In this document: piece after piece, positions 10,984 through 53,400 of the stretch
Numbering within the stretch: the first letter of the stretch is position 1
Layout: the number at the start of each line of letters is the position of its first letter
Origin: an uncultured Candidatus Saccharibacteria bacterium
GTDB taxonomy: Bacteria; Patescibacteriota; Minisyncoccia; Minisyncoccales; Minisyncoccaceae
Assembly (NCBI GenBank): GCA_965230985.1
Contig: OZ246399.1
Coordinates: 46,564-110,563 of the forward strand
Direction: 5' to 3'
Length of the DNA stretch: 64,000 bases
Made by a program: the position numbers and the translations under genes
The notes under the pieces: model-generated
Told to the model about the DNA's origin: nothing
The model's database searches: none
What the model saw: the letters and a program-made list of their open reading frames with translations, nothing else

Positions 10984-12057
10984 ATTTTAATTTCTGCTTC
11001 TATGAATTCATCTAATTCTCCATCTAATACCTTGTCTGGCTGGGTTGATTCAACTTCAGTTCTTAGGTCTTTAACCATCTTATATGGATGTAAGACATAT
11101 GAACGAATTTGATTCCCCCAACTAGCTGAAATATGCTCTCCTTTTATCTTCGACATTTCCTTATCTTGCTTTTCTAAATTATACTGGTATAGCTTTGACA
11201 TTAACATCTTCATGGCTCGTTCTTTGTTCTTTCCTTGCAACCTTTCTGATTGGCAGGTAACAACTATGTTTGAAGGATTGTGGGTTATTCTAACCGCTGA
11301 TTCTCTTTTGTTTACATATTGTCCTCCTGGCCCTGAAGCTTTATAATAATCAACCCTTATATCATCTGGCTTTATTTCCACTTCTCCTTCTTCTATTTCT
11401 GGCAAGACTTCAATTAAAGCAAAGGAAGTGTGTCTTAATTTCTGAGCGGAAAAAGGCGATATTCTTACTAATCTGTGCACTCCGTTTTCTTTTTTTAATA
11501 ATCCGTAAGCATACTTTCCAGAAATAGATAAGGTGGCTGATTTAATTCCTTCTTTTCCTTCGCTTCCTCCTCCTTCGCCAAATGATTCATCCAATACTTC
11601 AACTTTGAATCTTTTTCTTTCGCAATATCTTTCAAACATTCTTAAAAGCATCGCCGCCCAATCCTGGGCGTCTTGTCCTCCCGCTCCGGAATATACCGAC
11701 AGGATTGCATTTCCCTTGTCGTATTTTCCGCTGAAGAAAGTTTCGTTTTCTTTTTCTTTTAATTTCTTGTCTATCTTTTCTATCTCTTTATACAATTCTT
11801 CTTCATCTAATATTTCTATCAAATCAGGAAGATCATTAATGCTTTCTTTTAATTCTTCAATTGAATCAATTATCTCCTTGTTGTCTGATAATTCTTGAGA
11901 AAGCTTTTTTGCTTTTTCCTGATTATTCCAAAAGTCTGGTTTCTCTACTTCTTTCTCTAATTCAGCTATTCTTTTTTGAATTTTTGATAAGTCAAAGACG
12001 GTCCTCTAGGGCGAGGATTCTTTTATTCAAGTCTTCTATTGTCTTTTCTTTTTCCAT
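10980..12057 (-). CDS. prfB: Peptide chain release factor 2, requires a programmed +1 frameshift
   Basis: ORF0 is MEKEKTIEDLNKRILALEDRL followed by TGA. The +1 frame continues DLSKIQKRIAELEKEVEKPDFWNNQ... into the tracked ORF, which contains SGAGGQ and SPF. Confidence 0.9.
11992..11997 (-). promoter_or_regulatory. prfB +1 frameshift site CTT TGA C
   Basis: Minus strand reads GAGGACCGTCTTTGAC. An SD-like GAGGA lies a few nt upstream of CTT-TGA. Confidence 0.85.
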
Positions 12058-12119
12058 GTTTGTATTATATCAAAAAATTAGAATTAATAAAATGCCTTAT
12101 TAGGGTTATTGTTTCTCAT

Positions 12120-12238: not shown

Positions 12239-13627
12239 TCAAAAATTAACAGGATCTCCTTCTTTCACTAAAAATACCTTCTCTTTTTTTGCCAAAGCAA
12301 TCATTTCTTTGGTAAATCCACTTTTACTAAATATTATAAAATACTCTTTCCTTCGTTCGTTGTTCCATTTTACTTCAACTGATTTTCTTTTTAAATCGTA
12401 AAAAATCGATTTATCAACAAGATTATTTGACCATTTACATTCACCAAAAATAATTTCTTTTGTTTTTTTGTTGACCCCAACAATATCTATTTCTTCTTCT
12501 TTTTTCCACCATCTACCTATTCTTTCAAAAGAAAATATTTTATTTCTAAAATCAGATAATAATTCTCTACAAACTTTTTCGTAAGTATTAGCTTTTATCG
12601 CTCCAAATGTTTCTTCTATCTTTCTTGAGACCTCATCATATCTTTCTATTTCTAAATCACTCTTATAGGGGAAAACGTACTGAAACCAAAATCTTAAAAA
12701 ATTATCTGATATTTTATATATCCCCTGTTTTGATTTTTGTAAATTTTCTTCTGTAACAGGCACTTCTTTTTCCATTAATTGCAATTTAACAAGTACATCG
12801 ATATATTTGGTAAGAATATTTTTTTCAAGTCCAGTATCATTAGATATTTCTCCAAATTTTGTTTTGCTCCAAGAAATAGCCCTTAAAATAGATAAATAGC
12901 TTTTAGGCTCCCTTAATTCTTCTTTTAAAATAAATTCTACCTCGTTATATAAAAAAGATGTTTTTTTAAAAATATTGGTTTTAATATTTTCATCAAGAGA
13001 TATTTCTTTTTTAATCTCTAGGAGATAAGCAGGCATTCCCCCGCAAATAGTGTAAATACTTAAAAAATCATCAAAACTTTTTTCAGGAAAAAACTGCCAT
13101 GCCTGCTTAAAAGTTAAAGGATTTATCTGAGCCTGTCCAGTTCTTCTTCCAAAAAGAGGAGATTTGTAAGATAATACTTCAGACTCCATCATAGAAATAC
13201 TTGATCCAGACAAAATTAAAAATATTTTACTTCCTTTTAAATACTCTTCCCACCCTTTTTGAAATAAAGAACTAATAGATTTATTTGTTTCAACAATATA
13301 AGGATATTCATCTACAGCAAAAACAAATCTATCTTTAGTCTTTTCTTTCAAATATTGAAAAAGATCAAGCCATTCGTTAAAACCATTTTTAACTAATAGC
13401 TTATCGTTAAAATAATTCCCAAAAAGCATTCCAAGTTCCTTTAGTTGATCCCTATCAGATCTTTTATCGGCTACAAAATAAATAGAAGGCTTGTTTTTAA
13501 TAAACTGCTTAATTAATTCTGTCTTTCCAACCCTTCTTTTTCCATAGATTATAAAAAACTCAGAAGAATCTTCTTTCCATCTTTTGTTTAATTCATCTAA
13601 TTCTGATTGACGATTTATAAATTTCAT
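12239..13627 (-). CDS. AAA-type ATPase of the archaeal-ATPase / DUF234 family
   Basis: Walker A GKRRVGKT near the N-terminus, a Walker B-like FVFAVDEYP, and a C-terminal wHTH-plus-DUF234-like tail (EIDIVGV...FGECKW). Confidence 0.7.
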   Translation of the reverse strand: MKFINRQSELDELNKRWKEDSSEFFIIYGKRRVGKTELIKQFIKNKPSIYFVADKRSDRDQLKELGMLFGNYFNDKLLVKNGFNEWLDLFQYLKEKTKDRFVFAVDEYPYIVETNKSISSLFQKGWEEYLKGSKIFLILSGSSISMMESEVLSYKSPLFGRRTGQAQINPLTFKQAWQFFPEKSFDDFLSIYTICGGMPAYLLEIKKEISLDENIKTNIFKKTSFLYNEVEFILKEELREPKSYLSILRAISWSKTKFGEISNDTGLEKNILTKYIDVLVKLQLMEKEVPVTEENLQKSKQGIYKISDNFLRFWFQYVFPYKSDLEIERYDEVSRKIEETFGAIKANTYEKVCRELLSDFRNKIFSFERIGRWWKKEEEIDIVGVNKKTKEIIFGECKWSNNLVDKSIFYDLKRKSVEVKWNNERRKEYFIIFSKSGFTKEMIALAKKEKVFLVKEGDPVNF

Positions 13628-13775: not shown

Positions 13776-14075
13776 TTATTTCCCCTTCTTTAATAATATC
13801 TTATAAACCCCATCAAGGAAGTCTCCTCCGGCATATCCGATGATAAAGGCAGTGGCTGAAGAAATATATTTAACTCCTTCAAACGAAATGAATGAGTTGT
13901 TTATCGCTAACGCAACTAATAATCCGACTATTCCTGACAAAAACATCATTACGAAAAAATACGGGAGATTGAATCCAGTATTCTTATAATCATATTGATG
14001 TTTTAAAAATCCAATTAGACCCCTTACTACTCCTCCTCCGAATCCGGCGATTAAGATAGAAATGTAAAATGCCAT
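13776..14075 (-). CDS. Small 3-TM membrane protein
   Basis: 99 aa with hydrophobic segments. It starts 10 nt after the stop of the upstream secreted protein gene. Confidence 0.5.
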   Translation of the reverse strand: MAFYISILIAGFGGGVVRGLIGFLKHQYDYKNTGFNLPYFFVMMFLSGIVGLLVALAINNSFISFEGVKYISSATAFIIGYAGGDFLDGVYKILLKKGK

Positions 14076-14085
14076 GTTATTTTAA

Positions 14086-15546
14086 TTAAAATTTTAATTT
14101 GCCTTGAGAGACAAGATAAATAATTACTCTTAATAAAACTATTAAAAGTTCCTCCTTATTCATTTGGTTTAATGGCTTTTCAATCGTAAAAGGAAGCTTG
14201 ATTGTATTATTGTCGGTTTCTACTTGATTTTCTTTGGCATAGGTATTAGCAGTCATAGAATAAAAATAGGTCTGACTGTCTGATTCTTTATTATTATCAC
14301 TAACTGATGGAATTACAGTAACTGAATATATGTCTTTCCCTATATTAGAAATAACTAATTCTGATTCAAAATTTTTATCTAATCTCGTAAAACCAATGCT
14401 CATTTCTCCAGAAATACTTTTAATAATATGTGGTATTTGCTTAATTGTCCCCGAAGGATTAGAAATTTTAATCTTTAAATCTCCACTTCCACCAGTAAAC
14501 TTTTGCCAATGAGATGAATAATTATTTAAAAATTGACCTAAATACAAAGTACTGTCTCCTGAAAAAGGAAGGAAGTTACTAAAAGGAATAACATGTAAAT
14601 TTATTAAGTTCTTATCTTTAAAACAATATCTTGCTCCCATTGAACAATCATTAAGATATGTGGCTATTGTCCAATCAGAAAAAACATCAGAAAATGTTTC
14701 TTTGTGTCCATTTTTTAACAATGCCTCATTGATACTTTCGATTCCATTTTTATCTGATTTTAAAGAATCTGTTAATATCACTAATCCATATTGATCCACC
14801 AAGTAATGAATAAAAGAATTAATTACTCCGTAATCATATGAAGAATTATTCCATTCGGTTAAGGAATCATATGGTTTTTCTAAAAAACTATTCAATCTTG
14901 ATTTAAGATAACTATTTTCACCGTCATTATAACCCATTAAAGTAATAGTATACTCAGCCCTAGCCTCATTAAGCCATACAGCCTCACTGGTTCCATTTTT
15001 TAATTCTTTTTGATTTAGGGTTATTAAATGGGTAAATTCATGAGCTAACGTTTCTTTAAGAAATTGTCCAGTAAGCAAACTGACATTAATGTAAGCCATT
15101 TCCCTTTGATTAGATAAAGGATTAACTGTTTTTTCGTATTCATCAATATTCCTAACATACCCTTTAACATTACTATTGGTTTGATAGAATAAAACCGTTA
15201 TTCTTCTGTCTTTATCTACTCCAGGAATAGCTTCAGTTCCAAAAGTTGAAGTCAGCTTAGGGTAGATATTTAAATTAAATTCACTTCCCAAGCTTTCCAT
15301 AACAACACCGATTTGGTCTTTTTCTGTCTGAGTTTTTGAATTCCACCAATCAGTTTCGACATAAAAATACAATCTGTCTGGAGATTTAATTAGGGTAGCT
15401 GAGACCTGACTTTTGTTATTGGGAGTAAATCCCTGTTCGACATAAAAATTAGTCTTATCCCCGGTATTATCAGCCATTACAAAAAATGGCATAACAAAAA
15501 ATATTGATAAAATAAAAATATATAATTTAAAATTAGTTAATTTCAT
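14086..15546 (-). CDS. Secreted HExxH (zincin-like) protein with a conserved C-terminal helix motif
   Basis: N-terminal signal/TM segment and a HEFTHL motif. The C-terminus is KPLNQMNKEELLIVLLRVIIYLVSQGKLKF. Confidence 0.65.
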   Translation of the reverse strand: MKLTNFKLYIFILSIFFVMPFFVMADNTGDKTNFYVEQGFTPNNKSQVSATLIKSPDRLYFYVETDWWNSKTQTEKDQIGVVMESLGSEFNLNIYPKLTSTFGTEAIPGVDKDRRITVLFYQTNSNVKGYVRNIDEYEKTVNPLSNQREMAYINVSLLTGQFLKETLAHEFTHLITLNQKELKNGTSEAVWLNEARAEYTITLMGYNDGENSYLKSRLNSFLEKPYDSLTEWNNSSYDYGVINSFIHYLVDQYGLVILTDSLKSDKNGIESINEALLKNGHKETFSDVFSDWTIATYLNDCSMGARYCFKDKNLINLHVIPFSNFLPFSGDSTLYLGQFLNNYSSHWQKFTGGSGDLKIKISNPSGTIKQIPHIIKSISGEMSIGFTRLDKNFESELVISNIGKDIYSVTVIPSVSDNNKESDSQTYFYSMTANTYAKENQVETDNNTIKLPFTIEKPLNQMNKEELLIVLLRVIIYLVSQGKLKF

Positions 15547-15623
15547 TATTTTTTATTCTAACACATGGAAATAAAAAAACAACTAGATACGATTTTTATC
15601 ATGTTATGTCTTATGCTTTTGAA

Positions 15624-15654
15624 AAATCAAAAACCTCCCAAAAGGGAGGCTTTT
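15624..15654 (-). terminator. Intrinsic terminator (CCTCCC-AAAA-GGGAGG) after the 547-aa surface protein gene
   Basis: GC-rich hairpin flanked by A-run and T-run, so potentially bidirectional. Confidence 0.75.
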
Positions 15655-15665
15655 AAATTTTCTTT

Positions 15666-17309
15666 CTATAGATGAGTTAATTTTCCTTGTACTATTAAAG
15701 TTAAAATTAATCTTAATACTGTATTAATAAGCTCATCTTTAGTCATTTCATTTAACGGTTTACTTATAGTTATCGGTCCAAGCTGTTGAGTAGTTGTAGT
15801 CGTTGGGGTGGTTGTAGTAGTGGTAGTTGGAGTAGTTGTAGTCGTTGGGGTGGTTGTAGTAGTGGTAGTTGGAGTAGTTGTAGTCGTTGGGGTGGTTGTA
15901 GTAGATCCTCCACTAGAACCTGAACCACTTCCTCCGCCATAAGAAATTTCAAAAGGAGAAATTGCAAGAGATGTGCTAGCATTTGAATAAACATCAGTAA
16001 CGATAATGCTGCAATTGCTGTATCTTGCTGGACTCATAGAAACAAAAGTAATGGTATTGTTTCCGGCTGTCGCTGATGTTGTTGCACTACTACATGCTCC
16101 GCTATAAGCGATTGTACCAGCTTCAGTAGCGCTAAATACATAGCTCGGGGTTAGCGTATTTGCTGTTCCAACTGCAGTAACCTGAGCTAAAACAGGGGCA
16201 AGATTGTCAGTAATGGTTTTAGCTGTCGAAGCATCTGCATTGGTGGGAACATCAGTTACTGTTGCGGCAGGATTTAAAGTATCTCCACTAGCAACAGTTG
16301 TACTTGCACCCAATGTAACTGTTAAAACTGTATTGCTAACAGTCCAACCTACGGTTACGCTATCAAAAGTATGACTACCACTTAACCCTAAGTCGGAATC
16401 TAAATGAGCCTTAGAATCAACCCTAACTGTGGCTGTAGCTATTGGTTCACTAAAAGTCAAAACTAATTTATCAGTACCATCAATAGTTGTATTACTGTTG
16501 CTATCGGTCCAAGTAACGGTTAATACTTTCGGACCAACATTATCAGTAATAGTTTTGGCTGATGAAGCATCTGCAACACCTGCGATATCAGTTACTGTTG
16601 CGGCAGGATTTAAAGTATCTCCACTAGCAACAGTTGTTCCTGTTCCTAAAGTTATTGTTAAAATTTTGCCTGTAGCATCCCAAGAAGCAACAACCGCTGC
16701 TCCACCAATTGTATGTCCACCGCTTAATCCAATATCTGTATTTAAATTAGCAACTGAATCAGTCCTTACTGTTGCTGGATCTATTTTTTCACTAAAAGTT
16801 AAAACTAAAGTATCTGTAGCATCAATCTTTGTACTGCTATTTGTATCAGTCCAAACAACAGTATTAAGAGTAGGAGCAACAGTATCGGCAGCAGGAATAG
16901 CTACTGGCGCGAGAGTTAAATCTCCTGCTCCCCCAGCATCGGTAACAGTATCATCTGGATCGCAGGTATCAGCCGCGGCGACAGTTGCGTCAGTACCCAA
17001 TGTAACCGTTAAAATAGTATTAGTTGGTCCATTCCAAGCAATGGCTAATCCTGCAGCTGACGTACCGAAGGTATGAGCACTTAGACCTAAATCACTATCT
17101 AATTGAGCCAAGCGCACGGTTGCTGTAGCCATAGCTTCACTAAAAGTGAAAGCTATCGTGTCCCCTGTATTATAAGTACCACTGCCGTCAATATCGTTCC
17201 AAACAATAGTATTAAGAGTCGGCTCTCCAGCAGCGAATACTGTAGACAATCCTGTAATCACCATTGTTATAGCAATTATCAGTCCGAATATTTTAAATTT
17301 TGAATTCAT
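15666..17309 (-). CDS. Secreted repeat protein: three roughly 112-aa Ig-like repeats, a Thr/Pro linker and the conserved C-terminal helix motif
   Basis: Signal peptide, three repeats of (TLNTVVWTD...LTFSE...TVTLG...GDTLNPAATVTD), a TTTTPTTTTT linker, and the C-terminus KPLNEMTKDELINTVLRLILTLIVQGKLTHL. Confidence 0.7.
   Translation of the reverse strand: MNSKFKIFGLIIAITMVITGLSTVFAAGEPTLNTIVWNDIDGSGTYNTGDTIAFTFSEAMATATVRLAQLDSDLGLSAHTFGTSAAGLAIAWNGPTNTILTVTLGTDATVAAADTCDPDDTVTDAGGAGDLTLAPVAIPAADTVAPTLNTVVWTDTNSSTKIDATDTLVLTFSEKIDPATVRTDSVANLNTDIGLSGGHTIGGAAVVASWDATGKILTITLGTGTTVASGDTLNPAATVTDIAGVADASSAKTITDNVGPKVLTVTWTDSNSNTTIDGTDKLVLTFSEPIATATVRVDSKAHLDSDLGLSGSHTFDSVTVGWTVSNTVLTVTLGASTTVASGDTLNPAATVTDVPTNADASTAKTITDNLAPVLAQVTAVGTANTLTPSYVFSATEAGTIAYSGACSSATTSATAGNNTITFVSMSPARYSNCSIIVTDVYSNASTSLAISPFEISYGGGSGSGSSGGSTTTTPTTTTTPTTTTTTTPTTTTTPTTTTTTTPTTTTTQQLGPITISKPLNEMTKDELINTVLRLILTLIVQGKLTHL
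15792..15904. repeat. 42-bp tandem repeat, about 2.7 copies, encoding the Thr/Pro linker
   Basis: The unit AGTTGTAGTCGTTGGGGTGGTTGTAGTAGTGGTAGTTGGAGT repeats head to tail, identical by eye. Confidence 0.85.
16197..17222. repeat. Three diverged intragenic repeats of about 335 bp (protein-domain repeats)
   Basis: For example ACTGTTGCGGCAGGATTTAAAGTATCTCCACTAGCAACAGTTGT occurs near both 16258 and 16593. Confidence 0.7.
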
Positions 17310-21200: not shown

Positions 21201-22385
21201 AAATGTTACATATTTATTAGTTGCAGAAGCAACAGTAGATAATACTGTTCCATCTGGAGCAACTAATTTAATGTTTGTAATATCTGCATCAGCAACTGTT
21301 CCGTTCTGATAAATCTTTAAAGATTTTAAATACATGTCTTCATTGGCACCAGCAACGAAACTGAATCTCTGAATTTCGTATCCAGTTGTTCCAATGTCCT
21401 TAGAAACAGTAGCTGTTGTCAAAGATTTGACATCGGCTGTTAATGTTCCCAAGGTTGCGGTTGTGTCAACCATAGAGAAAGTATTACCGATTAGAGGTAA
21501 TCCAGTAGGTGTTCCTGACATTGCTGTCAAGTTAGCACCAACTGTTCCTGCTAATCCGTTAACACCACTTACCATGTTGAACTGAACCTGAATTACTTTT
21601 GTTGTTCCGGCAGGAACTGTAATTGGGTCATTAGCGAAAGTTACTGTAGCTACGCCATTAGCGAAAGTTACAATATTTCCATGCCTTACACCGTTTTCAT
21701 CAGCAACTACTACTCCAGCAACATTTGTGTCTATTGAAAGACCTGTTTTCTGGACTGTTAAACTTGTAACAGTTTGAGCTGTAGCTCCGGCTGAAACATT
21801 AATCTTTAATACTGGGTTGTAAGCTGAAGCTTCACCTAATGTACCAGAAGGCTGACTAGCAGCTAAAGATACAGTGTAGGCTCCTGTAGCAGGAGTTGTG
21901 GTTGTAGTAGTTGTTGAACCACTAGCAATCATAGCATTAGCCTTTGCTCTTGAAGCTGTTCCGAAGAATCCTGTTCCTGCGGCTAAGCCGTAAGGAGTTA
22001 GAACTTCAGAAGCATACTTATTTTGGAATTTTACTACTGCAGCTTTTGTCATGGCACCAAAGTAAGTTGTTTCACTTCCTTTGTTTCCGACAGAAGTTGC
22101 TGTGTCTGAATTTAATAGAATCTGTAGGTATTTTACGTTGCTACCTGTAGAACCTTGCGCTAAGTTAGTAGTAAATGTAAAACCAGCAGGAATGCCAGTT
22201 ATTGTTCCAGTTCCTGTTTGTGTGCCTGTCTGTGAACTACCAAGTAATTGGACGATCAAGGCCATAAGACCTGTAGAATCACATTCACTTAATGTAGTTA
22301 AAGAGCAAGCAGCAAAAGCTGGACTTACTACTACTGATAGAGTCAAGACTATACCAGCAACAATACCGAATTTTTTTGTACTCAT
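18231..22385 (-). CDS. Giant (1384 aa) Ala/Thr/Gly/Val-rich surface protein with an N-terminal peptidoglycan-binding domain; candidate S-layer or cell-envelope protein
   Basis: Signal peptide ending in AFA. PG_binding_1-like segment (GSNVKYLQILL...FGAMTKAAVVKFQNKY...LTP). The remainder is low in charged residues and looks beta-rich. Confidence 0.7.
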   Translation of the reverse strand: MSTKKFGIVAGIVLTLSVVVSPAFAACSLTTLSECDSTGLMALIVQLLGSSQTGTQTGTGTITGIPAGFTFTTNLAQGSTGSNVKYLQILLNSDTATSVGNKGSETTYFGAMTKAAVVKFQNKYASEVLTPYGLAAGTGFFGTASRAKANAMIASGSTTTTTTTPATGAYTVSLAASQPSGTLGEASAYNPVLKINVSAGATAQTVTSLTVQKTGLSIDTNVAGVVVADENGVRHGNIVTFANGVATVTFANDPITVPAGTTKVIQVQFNMVSGVNGLAGTVGANLTAMSGTPTGLPLIGNTFSMVDTTATLGTLTADVKSLTTATVSKDIGTTGYEIQRFSFVAGANEDMYLKSLKIYQNGTVADADITNIKLVAPDGTVLSTVASATNKYVTFDLTAAPYKIAKGLTKDLSVKVDVVNGSSRTAQFIIQNDYDVVATGASTGLNVIPTAGASVDSSFPIGDIATGNAGFNHMTIASGSLYVSKATTSPSGTISIGASTATIATFNFESRGEALEIQKLFININGSGLANDELAGTVRLVTEDGQTLWSASPTSTGLVANTAAGTAANIYTLSTYYTIPAGTTKKISLVVDTGSAMDATDTIYGRISDIYYKKLTSNAYATYSASAYITGNELSASAGTLTVVKNGSLGSSTKVEGQSEVKIGSYLLQTNSTEGVNVSSIGIAITGTDAADVDASFKNLKLKKADGTQIGSAVTSPVIDGATANAFTVSGELNIAANTTAQIDVYIDITTAAADGGSADTLVTKILQNGVSGTGATSSATAAGPSAAAGITGQTIAIVEGGTLTVAMETSGAASAQFLTTGLAGVELAKVKLAATVEDMKIDRLEIRSIKGDGNIAQVKLLGTGLASDPTAAVTAGTAVFTFASGSEIIVPAYGSKVLTVAADTTNIGTLTAGTLGTIGFGTLNAIGSGSGAIVQDTVTGTSYTASADDGSEAIAVGNIIYFTTTAASGTNTTPGYYMVTTQPGGGGQGLTDNGLGLNGGATITKWTAGQIVTMLTPTSVEIDADTDSNNALAVGDVVYFYGDVDGTDNSASTGWHVVTTAYTANSGAVIVLDGANVTIDADDGIAKFANASIANALVGNIMRFEEVEPTITLAADSKVSPGSTNSYEEVAKFDIKAAGSRDMTFDSLTVEKGGDNSPFRYVTKMSIWNGSNMLAEVANTSAAGTTDDGAGGATTISGVTVTVCSGANNTQANELAAISQDEFDKWAVGDTLTFYDGSAVTATATILSITGDTISACAGDDDPSIVFSTSPAIGQDKTVTIWNNRVHFNSTQGDTGDTALSVAPSITAGQTMTITVKADTTAVKTGVTSGNVRFSASIPGAKGPLTSTVGGLDWNYTPLASGGLASYKTQADSYPVNGNTLTY

Positions 22386-51393: not shown

Positions 51394-53400
51394 ATGAATT
51401 TAAAAAATAACAATACTCTTTCCGTCGGCAAGTGGCCGTCGAAAAAGCAATGGCTGCACTTCTTTAAGGTTCTAGAAAAGAAAGAAAAAATTGCCTTTGG
51501 CATTCTTTTAACGTTATTTATCTCTTCTCTTATCTTTCTTGTCTCATCATTCTACATTAAAAATACTAATGTAGTTCCCGCAGACTACGGAAGGATAAGA
51601 GAGGGGGTATTAGGACAGCCTCAGTTTATTAATCCCCTTTACGCTCCCTTATCAGATATTGATAAAGATTTAACTGAGCTAATCTTCTCTTCTTTAATGA
51701 CTTTCGATAATAATGGAAACATTGTTCCCGACTTAATTAATGATTATTCTATTGAAGACGATGGAAAAACTATTAATTTTTCCATTAAAGAAAATGCTAA
51801 ATGGCACGATGGAGTTCCCTTAACAATTGATGACGTTATTTTTACTATTGATTTAGTTCAAGATCCTGAATACTTATCCCCATTAAGAACTAATTGGCAA
51901 GGAGTTGAAATTGAAAAAATTTCTGATTACAAAGCACTTTTTAAATTAAAACAAGTTTACAGTGGATTTGAAGAATCTTTAGTTAACTTAAAGATATTAC
52001 CCAAGCATATTTGGAAAGATGTAAGTGTTCAATCAATAACATCAAATACTCAATTGAATGTTTTATCCCCCATTGGAAGTGGACCATATATGGTTAGTAA
52101 AACACTTCAAAGAAACGATAAAAGTATAAAGTCAATGATACTTAATGTAAATAAAGATTATTACGGTAAAGTTCCTCACATTCAAAGAATTGATTTTTAT
52201 TTCTATAACAACGAAAAAGATTTATTGAATAATCTAAAAAAAGGAAATCTTGATTCAGGAAATATTGAAATCAGTAATTACACAGACAAAAATTTCAAAA
52301 AATACAATTTGTATTCATTAGATACTCCTAACTACTTTGCTATATTTTTAAATAACGAAAAGAAACCTTTTGATTCAAAGGAAATAAGACAAGCCTTATC
52401 ATACATAACTAACAAGCAGGAAATAGCAGACAAAATTTTGGATGGTAAAGGAGAAATAATTGATTCTTTCCTTCTTCCTTCTTTCTATGGATTAAGCGAT
52501 CCCACCAGTGTATTATCTTACGATGAAGCTAAAGGACAAAATCTTTTAGATAAAAATGGATATACATTAAAAGATGGATTGAGAAAAAAAGTTATAGAAA
52601 AATCTAGCGGCTTCAAATTCAGTCAAACCCTACAGATTGGAAGCAACAATGCTGAAGTCAAAAAACTTCAAGAATGCTTGGCTAGTGATTCAGAAATATA
52701 CCCATCGGGAACGATTTCTGGAAAATTCGGACAAGAAACTAAAACAGCAGTCATTAAATTTCAAGAAAAATACAAAGACGATATTCTTACTCCTAATAAT
52801 TTAACTGAAGGAACTGGCAAGGTTGCCGGAGCAACAATTAAAAAATTAAATGAAGTTTGCTTCGTTGTCCCTAATGAAGAAATACCATTATCGTTCGTTT
52901 TAAAAACTACGGACAATCCAATATTGATTGCAACCGCTAATTTAATAAAAGAACAATGGGAAAAACAAGGAATAAAGATAGAAATACAAACAATGAATGA
53001 AAACGATATTAAAAAAGTTATTAGAGAAAGAAACTTTGATATTCTTCTTTTTGGAGAAAAATTAGGAGGCATCCCTGATCCAATTCCCTTCTGGCACTCT
53101 TCACAAAGAGTTGACCCAGGACTAAATCTTTCTTTATATCAAAACACTAAAGCTGATCAATTAATGGAGAAAGCTAGAAAATATTCTAACTTTGAGGATA
53201 ATAATAGAAAAAAGACATTAGAAGACTTACAAAATATTATAATCGATGATGCTCCAGCTATTCCCCTTTTCACAACTAATTACTTGTATTTGATAAATAA
53301 GAACGTGAAAGGATTTTTAACTCAAAAAATTATTGAATCATCAAAAAGATTTGTTGATATTTCAAATTGGTATATTAAAGAAAAAAGAGTATGGAAATAG
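51394..53400 (+). CDS. Membrane-anchored family-5 (peptide/nickel type) solute-binding protein with an inserted peptidoglycan-binding domain
   Basis: SBP_bac_5-like regions (WHDGVPLTIDDVIFT) and an inserted PG_binding_1-like block GSNNAEVKKLQECL...FGQETKTAVIKFQEKY. Confidence 0.75.
   Translation: MNLKNNNTLSVGKWPSKKQWLHFFKVLEKKEKIAFGILLTLFISSLIFLVSSFYIKNTNVVPADYGRIREGVLGQPQFINPLYAPLSDIDKDLTELIFSSLMTFDNNGNIVPDLINDYSIEDDGKTINFSIKENAKWHDGVPLTIDDVIFTIDLVQDPEYLSPLRTNWQGVEIEKISDYKALFKLKQVYSGFEESLVNLKILPKHIWKDVSVQSITSNTQLNVLSPIGSGPYMVSKTLQRNDKSIKSMILNVNKDYYGKVPHIQRIDFYFYNNEKDLLNNLKKGNLDSGNIEISNYTDKNFKKYNLYSLDTPNYFAIFLNNEKKPFDSKEIRQALSYITNKQEIADKILDGKGEIIDSFLLPSFYGLSDPTSVLSYDEAKGQNLLDKNGYTLKDGLRKKVIEKSSGFKFSQTLQIGSNNAEVKKLQECLASDSEIYPSGTISGKFGQETKTAVIKFQEKYKDDILTPNNLTEGTGKVAGATIKKLNEVCFVVPNEEIPLSFVLKTTDNPILIATANLIKEQWEKQGIKIEIQTMNENDIKKVIRERNFDILLFGEKLGGIPDPIPFWHSSQRVDPGLNLSLYQNTKADQLMEKARKYSNFEDNNRKKTLEDLQNIIIDDAPAIPLFTTNYLYLINKNVKGFLTQKIIESSKRFVDISNWYIKEKRVWK

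Follow-up and report, generated by a model that had tools for sequence, protein, structure and literature searches.

A lineage-specific C-terminal module on unrelated exported proteins of Patescibacteria, probably a surface-retention or docking tail

Introduction

LPXTG signals and their sortases, and PEP-CTERM signals and their exosortases, act at the C-terminus of several signal-peptide proteins per genome and place a motif before a hydrophobic stretch; the PEP-CTERM architecture comprises a PEP motif, a transmembrane helix and an Arg-rich end. The C-terminal helices of PBP5 and PBP6 tether the protein in the plane of the membrane, and dockerins, which pair with cohesins, are duplicated F-hand modules of ~70 amino acids (aa) that bind calcium. 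Here we describe a tail of ~40 residues that ends two neighbouring gene products, a peptidase-like protein with an HExxH motif (protein A) and a protein with Ig-like repeats (protein B). Both are encoded in a 64-kb stretch of contig OZ246399.1 (assembly GCA_965230985.1) from an ultrasmall bacterium of the Patescibacteria, the whole of which is referred to below as the window.

Patescibacteria, or the Candidate Phyla Radiation (CPR), make up a large share of bacterial diversity and are host-attached, and the retention and organisation of their surface proteins are scarcely known. The tail is a real, previously undescribed and lineage-specific C-terminal module of Paceibacteria/Minisyncoccales-type Patescibacteria, and it is probably a surface-retention or docking module.

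Results

Two neighbouring proteins share a C-terminal tail

An earlier note, made from the letters of the window, had claimed that the otherwise unrelated proteins A and B end in a common helical motif, a possible sorting, anchoring or oligomerisation tag analogous to LPXTG or PEP-CTERM. Both C-termini and the shared pattern were confirmed residue by residue as first written. Each protein ends in L-[PG]-x-x-I-x-KPLNxM-[NT]-K-[ED]-EL, a hydrophobic helix of ~18 residues and QGK, and stops 3-4 residues later. The two tails are identical at 18 of 33 residues, and their alignment of 40-42 columns has 19 invariant columns. A profile hidden Markov model (HMM) of the tail, searched across the window in all six frames (833 segments), found exactly two copies, those of A and B (Table 1); the best other segment scored 8.2 bits (E 0.1). 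At the DNA level many third-codon positions differ between the two tails, which indicates that they did not arise by a recent duplication. The tail of A is 83% identical to that of its orthologue P0001, from another sample, and 49% identical to that of B in the same genome, so the two tail subtypes are old.

The tail recurs on unrelated signal-peptide proteins

A profile built from the two tails was scored against 1.84 billion representative proteins, with E < 1e-3 as the cut-off. It returned 26 protein clusters, 13 of them at E < 1e-10, and in all 26 no more than a few residues followed the tail. One genome per GTDB species was also scanned with a degenerate DNA pattern, K-P-L-x-[QE]-M-x-x-[DEN]-E-L-h-x-x-h-h, and the 44 loci returned were checked with the HMM. 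This gave 38 copies at the C-terminus, 0-8 residues before the stop, and 3 internal copies, spread over 29 assemblies; nearly all of these carry the label Patescibacteria, Paceibacterota or Minisyncoccales, and Ca. Microsyncoccus archaeolyticus PMX.50 is among them. Eight loci lay in genomes not labelled Patescibacteria; these served as the chance control, and they were weak, internal matches in other proteins that look like chance. Because the profile came from only two sequences and the DNA pattern was strict, the carrier counts are lower bounds.

The passengers of the tail are unrelated to one another. The HExxH family forms the majority, and Big_5, fn3, CHB_HEX_C_1, Fn3_assoc, Kazal, chagasin I42, Ice_binding, DUF5018 with PG_binding_1 and LTD with PG_binding_1 also occur, as do several carriers that match no Pfam family. 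All carriers with an intact N-terminus have signal-peptide-like starts (basic n-region, hydrophobic core, A-x-A-like site) except L034, whose start codon is ambiguous. The internal copies lie in a Gly_rich_2 protein, in a subtilase with PG_binding_1 after the motif, and upstream of TSP_1 and Peptidase_C25. The tail thus stands between domains in three proteins, which indicates that the module can function without being terminal. The idea of a modular tail on signal-peptide proteins with unrelated passengers was therefore borne out in many genomes, and restriction to signal-peptide proteins held apart from L034; restriction to the C-terminus held for the 38 copies and all 26 clusters, and not for the three internal copies.

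Extracellular proteases (HExxH, subtilase S8, C25) and inhibitors (Kazal, chagasin I42) were enriched among the carriers (L014, L026, L036, L041, P0025, P0026, L034, L042). Such a set suggests an exported toolkit for proteolysis and anti-proteolysis. Genuine tail genes were also seen in metagenome-assembled genomes labelled Lutibacter sp. (L005) and Pacearchaeota archaeon (L043), one of them on a contig of only 3.2 kb; these are probably binning errors rather than transfers.

Anatomy of the tail and selection on its peptide

The consensus of 28 tails is L-P/G-F/I-x-I-x-K-P-L-N-Q-M-[NTS]-[RK]-[ED]-E-L-L-x-V-L-L-[RK]-L-I-I-Y-L-x-x-Q-G-K-x-x-x, with K11, L13, M16, E20 and L21 invariant. The module of ~40 residues opens with an extended lead-in (L-[PG]-x-x-I-x-K-P-L), enters a helix at M-[T/N/S]-x-x-E-L and closes on Q-G-[K/R]; low-complexity linkers join it to the carrier proteins. 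We take M-[TNS]-x-x-E-L to be the hydrophobic staple and capping box of a helix N-terminus, and Q-G-K to be its C-cap. The helix spans ~18 residues, 67% of them Leu, Ile, Val, Met, Phe, Tyr or Trp, and short variants of the tail end after 12 hydrophobic residues. One narrow polar stripe (E20, R/K27, Y/T31, Q35), spaced at 3-4 residues, runs along one face of the helix, and the rest is Leu, Ile or Val. Conserved K/R residues stand at alignment positions 11, 18, 27 and 37. Mean hydrophobicity is 0.46 and the hydrophobic moment 0.43.

Across 36 comparisons with the window tail of A, drawn from 37 A-type tails, 339 codon differences were synonymous and 207 non-synonymous, and the invariant Leu21 and Leu22 were each encoded by 6 different codons. 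The synonymous excess and the varied leucine codons indicate that purifying selection acts on the tail peptide.

The tail resembles the helix that precedes a peptidoglycan-binding domain

The cluster also encodes a giant surface protein, which has a CPR-variant PG_binding_1 domain; the earlier note had remarked that the N-terminus of this protein contains a stretch related to the tail. That stretch, LSECDSTGLMALIVQLLGSSQ (~22227-22292), was not detected by the tail HMM. At the profile level the remark is supported: SECDSTGLMALIVQLLG of the giant stands in register with QMNKEELLIVLLRVIIY, both in MAFFT alignments through intermediate sequences and in hhalign, which aligned the tail to the helix ahead of the domain (the pre-helix) and not to the peptidoglycan-binding domain itself (E 1.2e-4, probability 55%).

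At the loci examined, the CPR-variant domain has a helix 20-25 residues upstream in every case but one. The exception is an insert, at residues ~404-492, in an SBP_bac_5 solute-binding protein encoded at 51394-53400 of the window. A search with an alignment of helix and domain returned 327 proteins, many of them named 'peptidoglycan-binding protein' of Parcubacteria or Paceibacterota, and most have a pre-helix, typically (KP[ILV]S[QE])MT[IV]AELQAQI..L..QLQ.QL. The tail shares with it the lead-in K-P-x-x-x-M, the cap [TNS]-x-x-E-L, a helix of ~18-25 residues and a Gly-rich end. The tail HMM scored the pre-helices of P0042, P0037 and P0052 at 34.4, 27.6 and 16.4 bits and those of four further proteins at 7.7-9.8 bits, against a maximum of 6.3 bits among 1200 shuffled sequences. 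In L034 the full tail motif, KPFSQMTREELISLILQIIISLQ, occupies the pre-helix and is followed by a PG_binding_1 domain. L034 is the only chain in which PG_binding_1 was found after the tail; A and B have no such domain, and no peptidoglycan-binding coding sequence lies downstream of their tails. As judged from these alignments, the tail is the pre-helix of the CPR-type PG_binding_1 in a hydrophobic form that stands alone.

AlphaFold2 (AF2) models, made with alignments, gave a confident peptidoglycan-binding fold (predicted local distance difference test, pLDDT, > 92) and a pre-helix at pLDDT ~90 in P0042. With the P0042 fold, Foldseek matched only solved peptidoglycan-binding domains (5tv7, 1lbu, the SleB N-terminal domain 6tci, CtpB and phiKZ gp144). 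We also asked whether the tail might be helix 3 of PG_binding_1, given that in five carriers a match to this domain (profile positions 1-40) stands directly before it. This assignment was set aside, since hhalign put the tail on the pre-helix, and is retained only as a remote alternative.

By eye, a lipobox-like ..[AFIS]-[AS]-A-C closes the signal peptides of the giant proteins, and a second Cys follows 7-8 residues on (window 22300-22385; homologues in L007, L012, L031, L040, L049, L052, L060, L063, L067, L072, L074, L075 and L099). The giants may be lipoproteins, or may form a disulphide loop just ahead of the helix.

The tail matches no named signal

No Pfam, NCBIfam or PHROG model covers the tail, in agreement with the earlier note, which had not recognised it as a named signal. 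Pfam PG_binding_1 (PF01471) gave no match over the tail in A, B or at least 20 other carriers; where carriers have that domain, it stops ~12 residues ahead of the tail. Among PDB sequences there was no relative (best E 0.2, a loop of FKBP51), and in the literature we found no described signal that matches.

The best 19-residue windows of the tail had apparent insertion energies of +5 to +10 kcal/mol, compared with -5.4 kcal/mol for the anchor of the TPR protein and -3.0 kcal/mol for the 99-aa membrane protein encoded nearby. The tail is thus not a transmembrane anchor. Its end carries a single K/R and no basic cluster. Because a membrane-spanning segment and a terminal basic cluster are both lacking, the tail has neither the LPXTG nor the PEP-CTERM architecture, and the analogy to these signals failed on these grounds and on the three internal copies. 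LPXTG itself is absent from all 28 aligned tails, which have KPL[NS][QE]M in its place, and no sortase, exosortase or rhomboid was seen among the window open reading frames scanned. Substrates of type I secretion lack an N-terminal signal peptide, whereas all carriers with resolved starts are signal-peptide-like; the C-terminal domain of type IX secretion is a beta-sandwich of ~80-100 aa, whereas the tail has 40 aa and is helical by its capping motifs. A phage origin was rejected, as a viral scan yielded 2 chance hits only.

Organisation and expression of the gene cluster

The features of the cluster are listed in Table 1.

Table 1 Cluster genes, tail copies and related elements, in window coordinates
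Feature	Coordinates	Strand	Remarks
Giant surface protein, 1384 aa	18231..22385	(-)	First gene in cluster order
N-terminal helix of giant protein, SECDSTGLMALIVQLLGSSQ	22227..22292	(-)	In-register homologue of the tail helix
CPR-variant PG_binding_1 of giant protein, residues ~65-155	21921..22193	(-)	AF2 pLDDT > 92
TPR protein, membrane-anchored, 202 aa	17527..18135	(-)	Between the giant gene and B
Protein B, 547 aa	15666..17309	(-)	Signal peptide, Big_5-like Ig repeats, T/P linker, tail
Tail of B, residues 508-547, QQLGPITISKPLNEMTKDELINTVLRLILTLIVQGKLTHL, behind Thr/Pro-rich linker	15669..15788	(-)	Tail HMM 75.2 bits
Terminator-like hairpin, 13-bp stem and T run	15627..15656	(-)	Between B and A
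Protein A, 486 aa	14086..15546	(-)	Signal peptide, HExxH (HEFTH) MA-clan-like peptidase body, tail
Tail of A, residues 447-486, NTIKLPFTIEKPLNQMNKEELLIVLLRVIIYLVSQGKLKF	14089..14208	(-)	Tail HMM 90.9 bits
99-aa protein, three membrane-spanning segments	13776..14075	(-)	10 nt downstream of A

The body of A matches Peptidase_MA_2 (E 1.2e-3) and MXAN_6640 HExxH (E 1.1e-4) weakly and has orthologues at ~45 loci; B matches Big_5 Ig-like domains weakly and has orthologues P0002 and L044. The order giant peptidoglycan-binding protein, A, 99-aa gene is conserved on one strand, with the giant gene upstream of A on the same strand in 15 loci. Adjacent pairs of tail genes like A and B were also found in L009, L021, L032, L044, L048 and L063. 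The hairpin between B and A suggests that they are separate transcription units; the gap between A and the 99-aa gene has no terminator-like site.

Three metatranscriptomes from activated-sludge samples were examined. The giant gene was recovered as a full-length contig at depth 45-51, its ends coinciding with the gene borders. B was present as fragments at depth 2-10, A as one 200-nt piece, and the TPR and 99-aa genes were not represented in any of the three; no contig spanned the junction of A and the 99-aa gene. The giant gene was the only cluster gene strongly represented. Secreted proteins with peptidoglycan-binding domains are among the most highly expressed genes of the relatives PMX.50 and PMX.108, which parasitise methanogenic archaea (PMC10936435), and the dominance of the giant gene in the cluster transcripts is in line with that report. 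A mapping of PMX.50_00411 and PMX.50_00413 (PMC10936435) onto this cluster was not adopted; the context of the A locus of PMX.50 (L011) differs.

The window is a stretch of low-GC bacterial chromosome that carries enolase, FtsZ, ClpB, RNase J, FtsEX and release factor 2 (RF2) genes, and sequence identical to it occurs in a 612-kb contig of assembly GCA_035404185.1 and in metagenome contigs, one of them labelled activated sludge. Programmed +1 frameshifting in RF2 genes is a known phenomenon, and the RF2 gene of the window has a site of the classical kind on the minus strand, within 11822-12110: CTTTGAC at 11991-11997, read as CTT TGA C, stands where a short upstream frame gives way to the PCRF/RF-1 frame.

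The 99-aa membrane protein follows the A family

The 99-aa gene is present on the strand of A and starts just beyond its stop codon, as the earlier note had described. In many loci a homologue lies downstream of the A-family gene, either directly or within a few kb. No copy was found in the DNA fetched around carriers without an adjacent A gene (Kazal, PG-binding and others), and loci of the A family such as L010, L017, L020, L043 and L048 had none within at least 5.6 kb of downstream DNA. Conversely, distant homologues (up to 68% identity) had no tail gene nearby save in L087, some of these loci covering 10 kb on each side. Synteny therefore rules out the 99-aa protein as a tail-specific partner, and the proposed co-occurrence with the tail was not borne out; its gene neighbourhoods point to a partner of the A gene. 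The protein has weak similarity to holins (Phage_holin_3_3 in Pfam, E 1.7e-3, below the curated cut-off; phrog_785 holin in PHROG, E 3.5e-3), and no phage context was seen around its gene.

At several related loci (L049:6158-8926, L051:4898-8161, L055, L069, L037) the junction of A and the 99-aa gene is expanded. The last 75-80 nt of the A gene, which encode the tail, occur as 3 direct repeats of 95-60% identity, the third degenerate, and the 99-aa gene stands 3-4 times in tandem over its full 300 nt. Between the copies lie inserts of 1.0-1.9 kb that encode AAA/DUF4143-like ATPases and, by eye, a nucleotidyltransferase and HEPN-like pair and NYN-like and DUF3800-like genes. From these arrangements the junction looks like a place of serial, site-specific insertion of accessory cassettes. 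An ATPase_2/DUF234 gene at 12239-13627 of the window is the orthologue of one L069 cassette; the window itself has no repeat copies.

Discussion

Helix-helix docking as the preferred reading

We infer that the tail retains exported proteins on the envelope as a tag for helix-helix docking or oligomerisation, a tentative reading to which we assign a probability of roughly 0.4. Of the roles considered, oligomerisation or docking is plausible and preferred, and an LPXTG-like sorting architecture is not upheld. Helix-helix association is the most economical explanation. The module is autonomous, since it follows linkers and can be internal. Its helix has sharp limits and is so hydrophobic that it would not remain by itself in water, its family is tied to wall-binding domains, and the carriers are encoded beside a wall-binding giant that has the same kind of helix. 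The tail helix would pair with like helices of peptidoglycan-binding proteins that are wall-bound or membrane-tethered and, alternatively or additionally, with other tail carriers as homo- or hetero-oligomers. Exported proteases, inhibitors and adhesin-like proteins with no wall-binding domain of their own would in this way be held on the envelope as complexes.

Several observations weigh against this reading. The AF2 models are of single chains only, and we infer both the docking and the identity of the partner. The 15 pairs of giant and tail protein vary too little for a test of co-variation, and the giant's own helix was modelled at a pLDDT of only ~65 (helix 12-24 of the fragment). Large hydrophobic residues make up 41% of typical pre-helices, compared with 67% of the tail helix, and such hydrophobicity would suit a lipid environment equally well.

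A more specific proposal, which we regard as unlikely, is that the tail zips onto the N-terminal helix of the abundant, peptidoglycan-binding and apparently lipid-tethered giant, which would act as a scaffold at the host interface. If this were true, proteases, inhibitors and adhesin-like proteins would be arrayed on that scaffold at the cell surface in a cellulosome-like assembly. More generally, the tail HMM is a simple sequence handle with which the surface proteome of the lineage can be listed, and the tail offers a testable docking hypothesis and a candidate surface-display tool in these organisms.

Alternative explanations

The main rival is an in-plane membrane anchor, in which the amphipathic C-terminal helix would lie in the outer leaflet of the cytoplasmic membrane after Sec export. 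The large share of hydrophobic residues, the mean hydrophobicity and moment and the conserved K/R residues all agree with it, and so does the giant: its homologous helix begins ~10 residues after the Cys of the lipobox-like ..A-A-C (by eye), which would place that helix at the membrane surface. Three copies, however, lie between soluble domains, most of the homologous pre-helices are Ala/Gln-rich and not membrane-seeking, and conservation is best at the capping residues and the KPL lead-in rather than in a basic or aromatic interfacial belt. We consider such an anchor doubtful, though worth weighing. It is improbable that the tail is a true sorting signal, recognised and possibly cleaved or attached by the 99-aa membrane protein or another dedicated factor. 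A short, near-invariant KPLNQM ahead of a hydrophobic stretch, several carriers per genome and a 99-aa gene 10 nt downstream of A and syntenic with it in many relatives are what such a signal might show; yet the membrane-spanning segment and basic cluster are lacking, helix capping would explain the invariant residues, and internal copies exist. Nor do the enzymes fit, as the 99-aa gene tracks the A family only, its weakly holin-like product is too small for a known sorting enzyme, and the window open reading frames scanned contained no sortase, exosortase or rhomboid.

In a narrower version of docking, the tail would be a ligand of the membrane-anchored TPR protein of the cluster, a speculative candidate receptor suggested by gene neighbourhood. 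TPR domains commonly bind C-terminal peptides, and a clear TPR homologue occurs in the same cluster at 8 loci in addition to the window: in L007, L010, L037, L044, L069, L072 and L099 it stands directly upstream of A, and in L063 between the giant gene and a tail protein. We hold this to be very improbable, given that the gene is missing from many A loci (e.g. L031, L040, L049, L060, L061), was not found in the DNA fetched around carriers without an adjacent A gene and was undetected in the three metatranscriptomes. Chance resemblance, or a simple local duplication confined to these two genes, would fit the presence of just two copies across the window, and the earlier note had named a motif limited to the two tails as the result that would undo its claim. 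Instead, independent carriers number in the dozens, across 29 genomes and 26 protein clusters, the tail of A is closer to that of its orthologue than to that of B, and the DNA of the two tails has diverged; this explanation is refuted.

Comparison with known systems

Like LPXTG and PEP-CTERM signals, the tail is C-terminal, places a motif before a hydrophobic stretch and occurs on several signal-peptide proteins per genome. Unlike them, it lacks a transmembrane helix and a basic tail, no cognate enzyme is in view, and its conserved residues are those that presumably cap a helix. With the anchors of PBP5 and PBP6 it shares an amphipathic helix that closes the chain of a Sec-exported enzyme and the lack of a transmembrane segment; those anchors, however, are unrelated to it in sequence and have no motif common to unrelated proteins, and the tail also occurs internally.

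The pre-helix of the CPR-type PG_binding_1 is closer. The two have lead-in, cap, a helix of 18-25 residues and a Gly-rich end in common, and both occur on exported proteins of the same lineage. The pre-helix is usually Ala/Gln-rich and amphipathic, lies upstream of a peptidoglycan-binding domain and often follows the signal peptide directly, whereas the tail is much more hydrophobic, forms the end of the protein and usually does not share its chain with a peptidoglycan-binding domain. Dockerins have no relation to the tail in sequence or fold, and their duplicated calcium-binding build is foreign to it. In organisation, however, the dockerin-cohesin system is similar: like the tail, a dockerin is a small conserved module that stands after a linker on many unrelated secreted enzymes and could assemble them on a wall-anchored scaffold.

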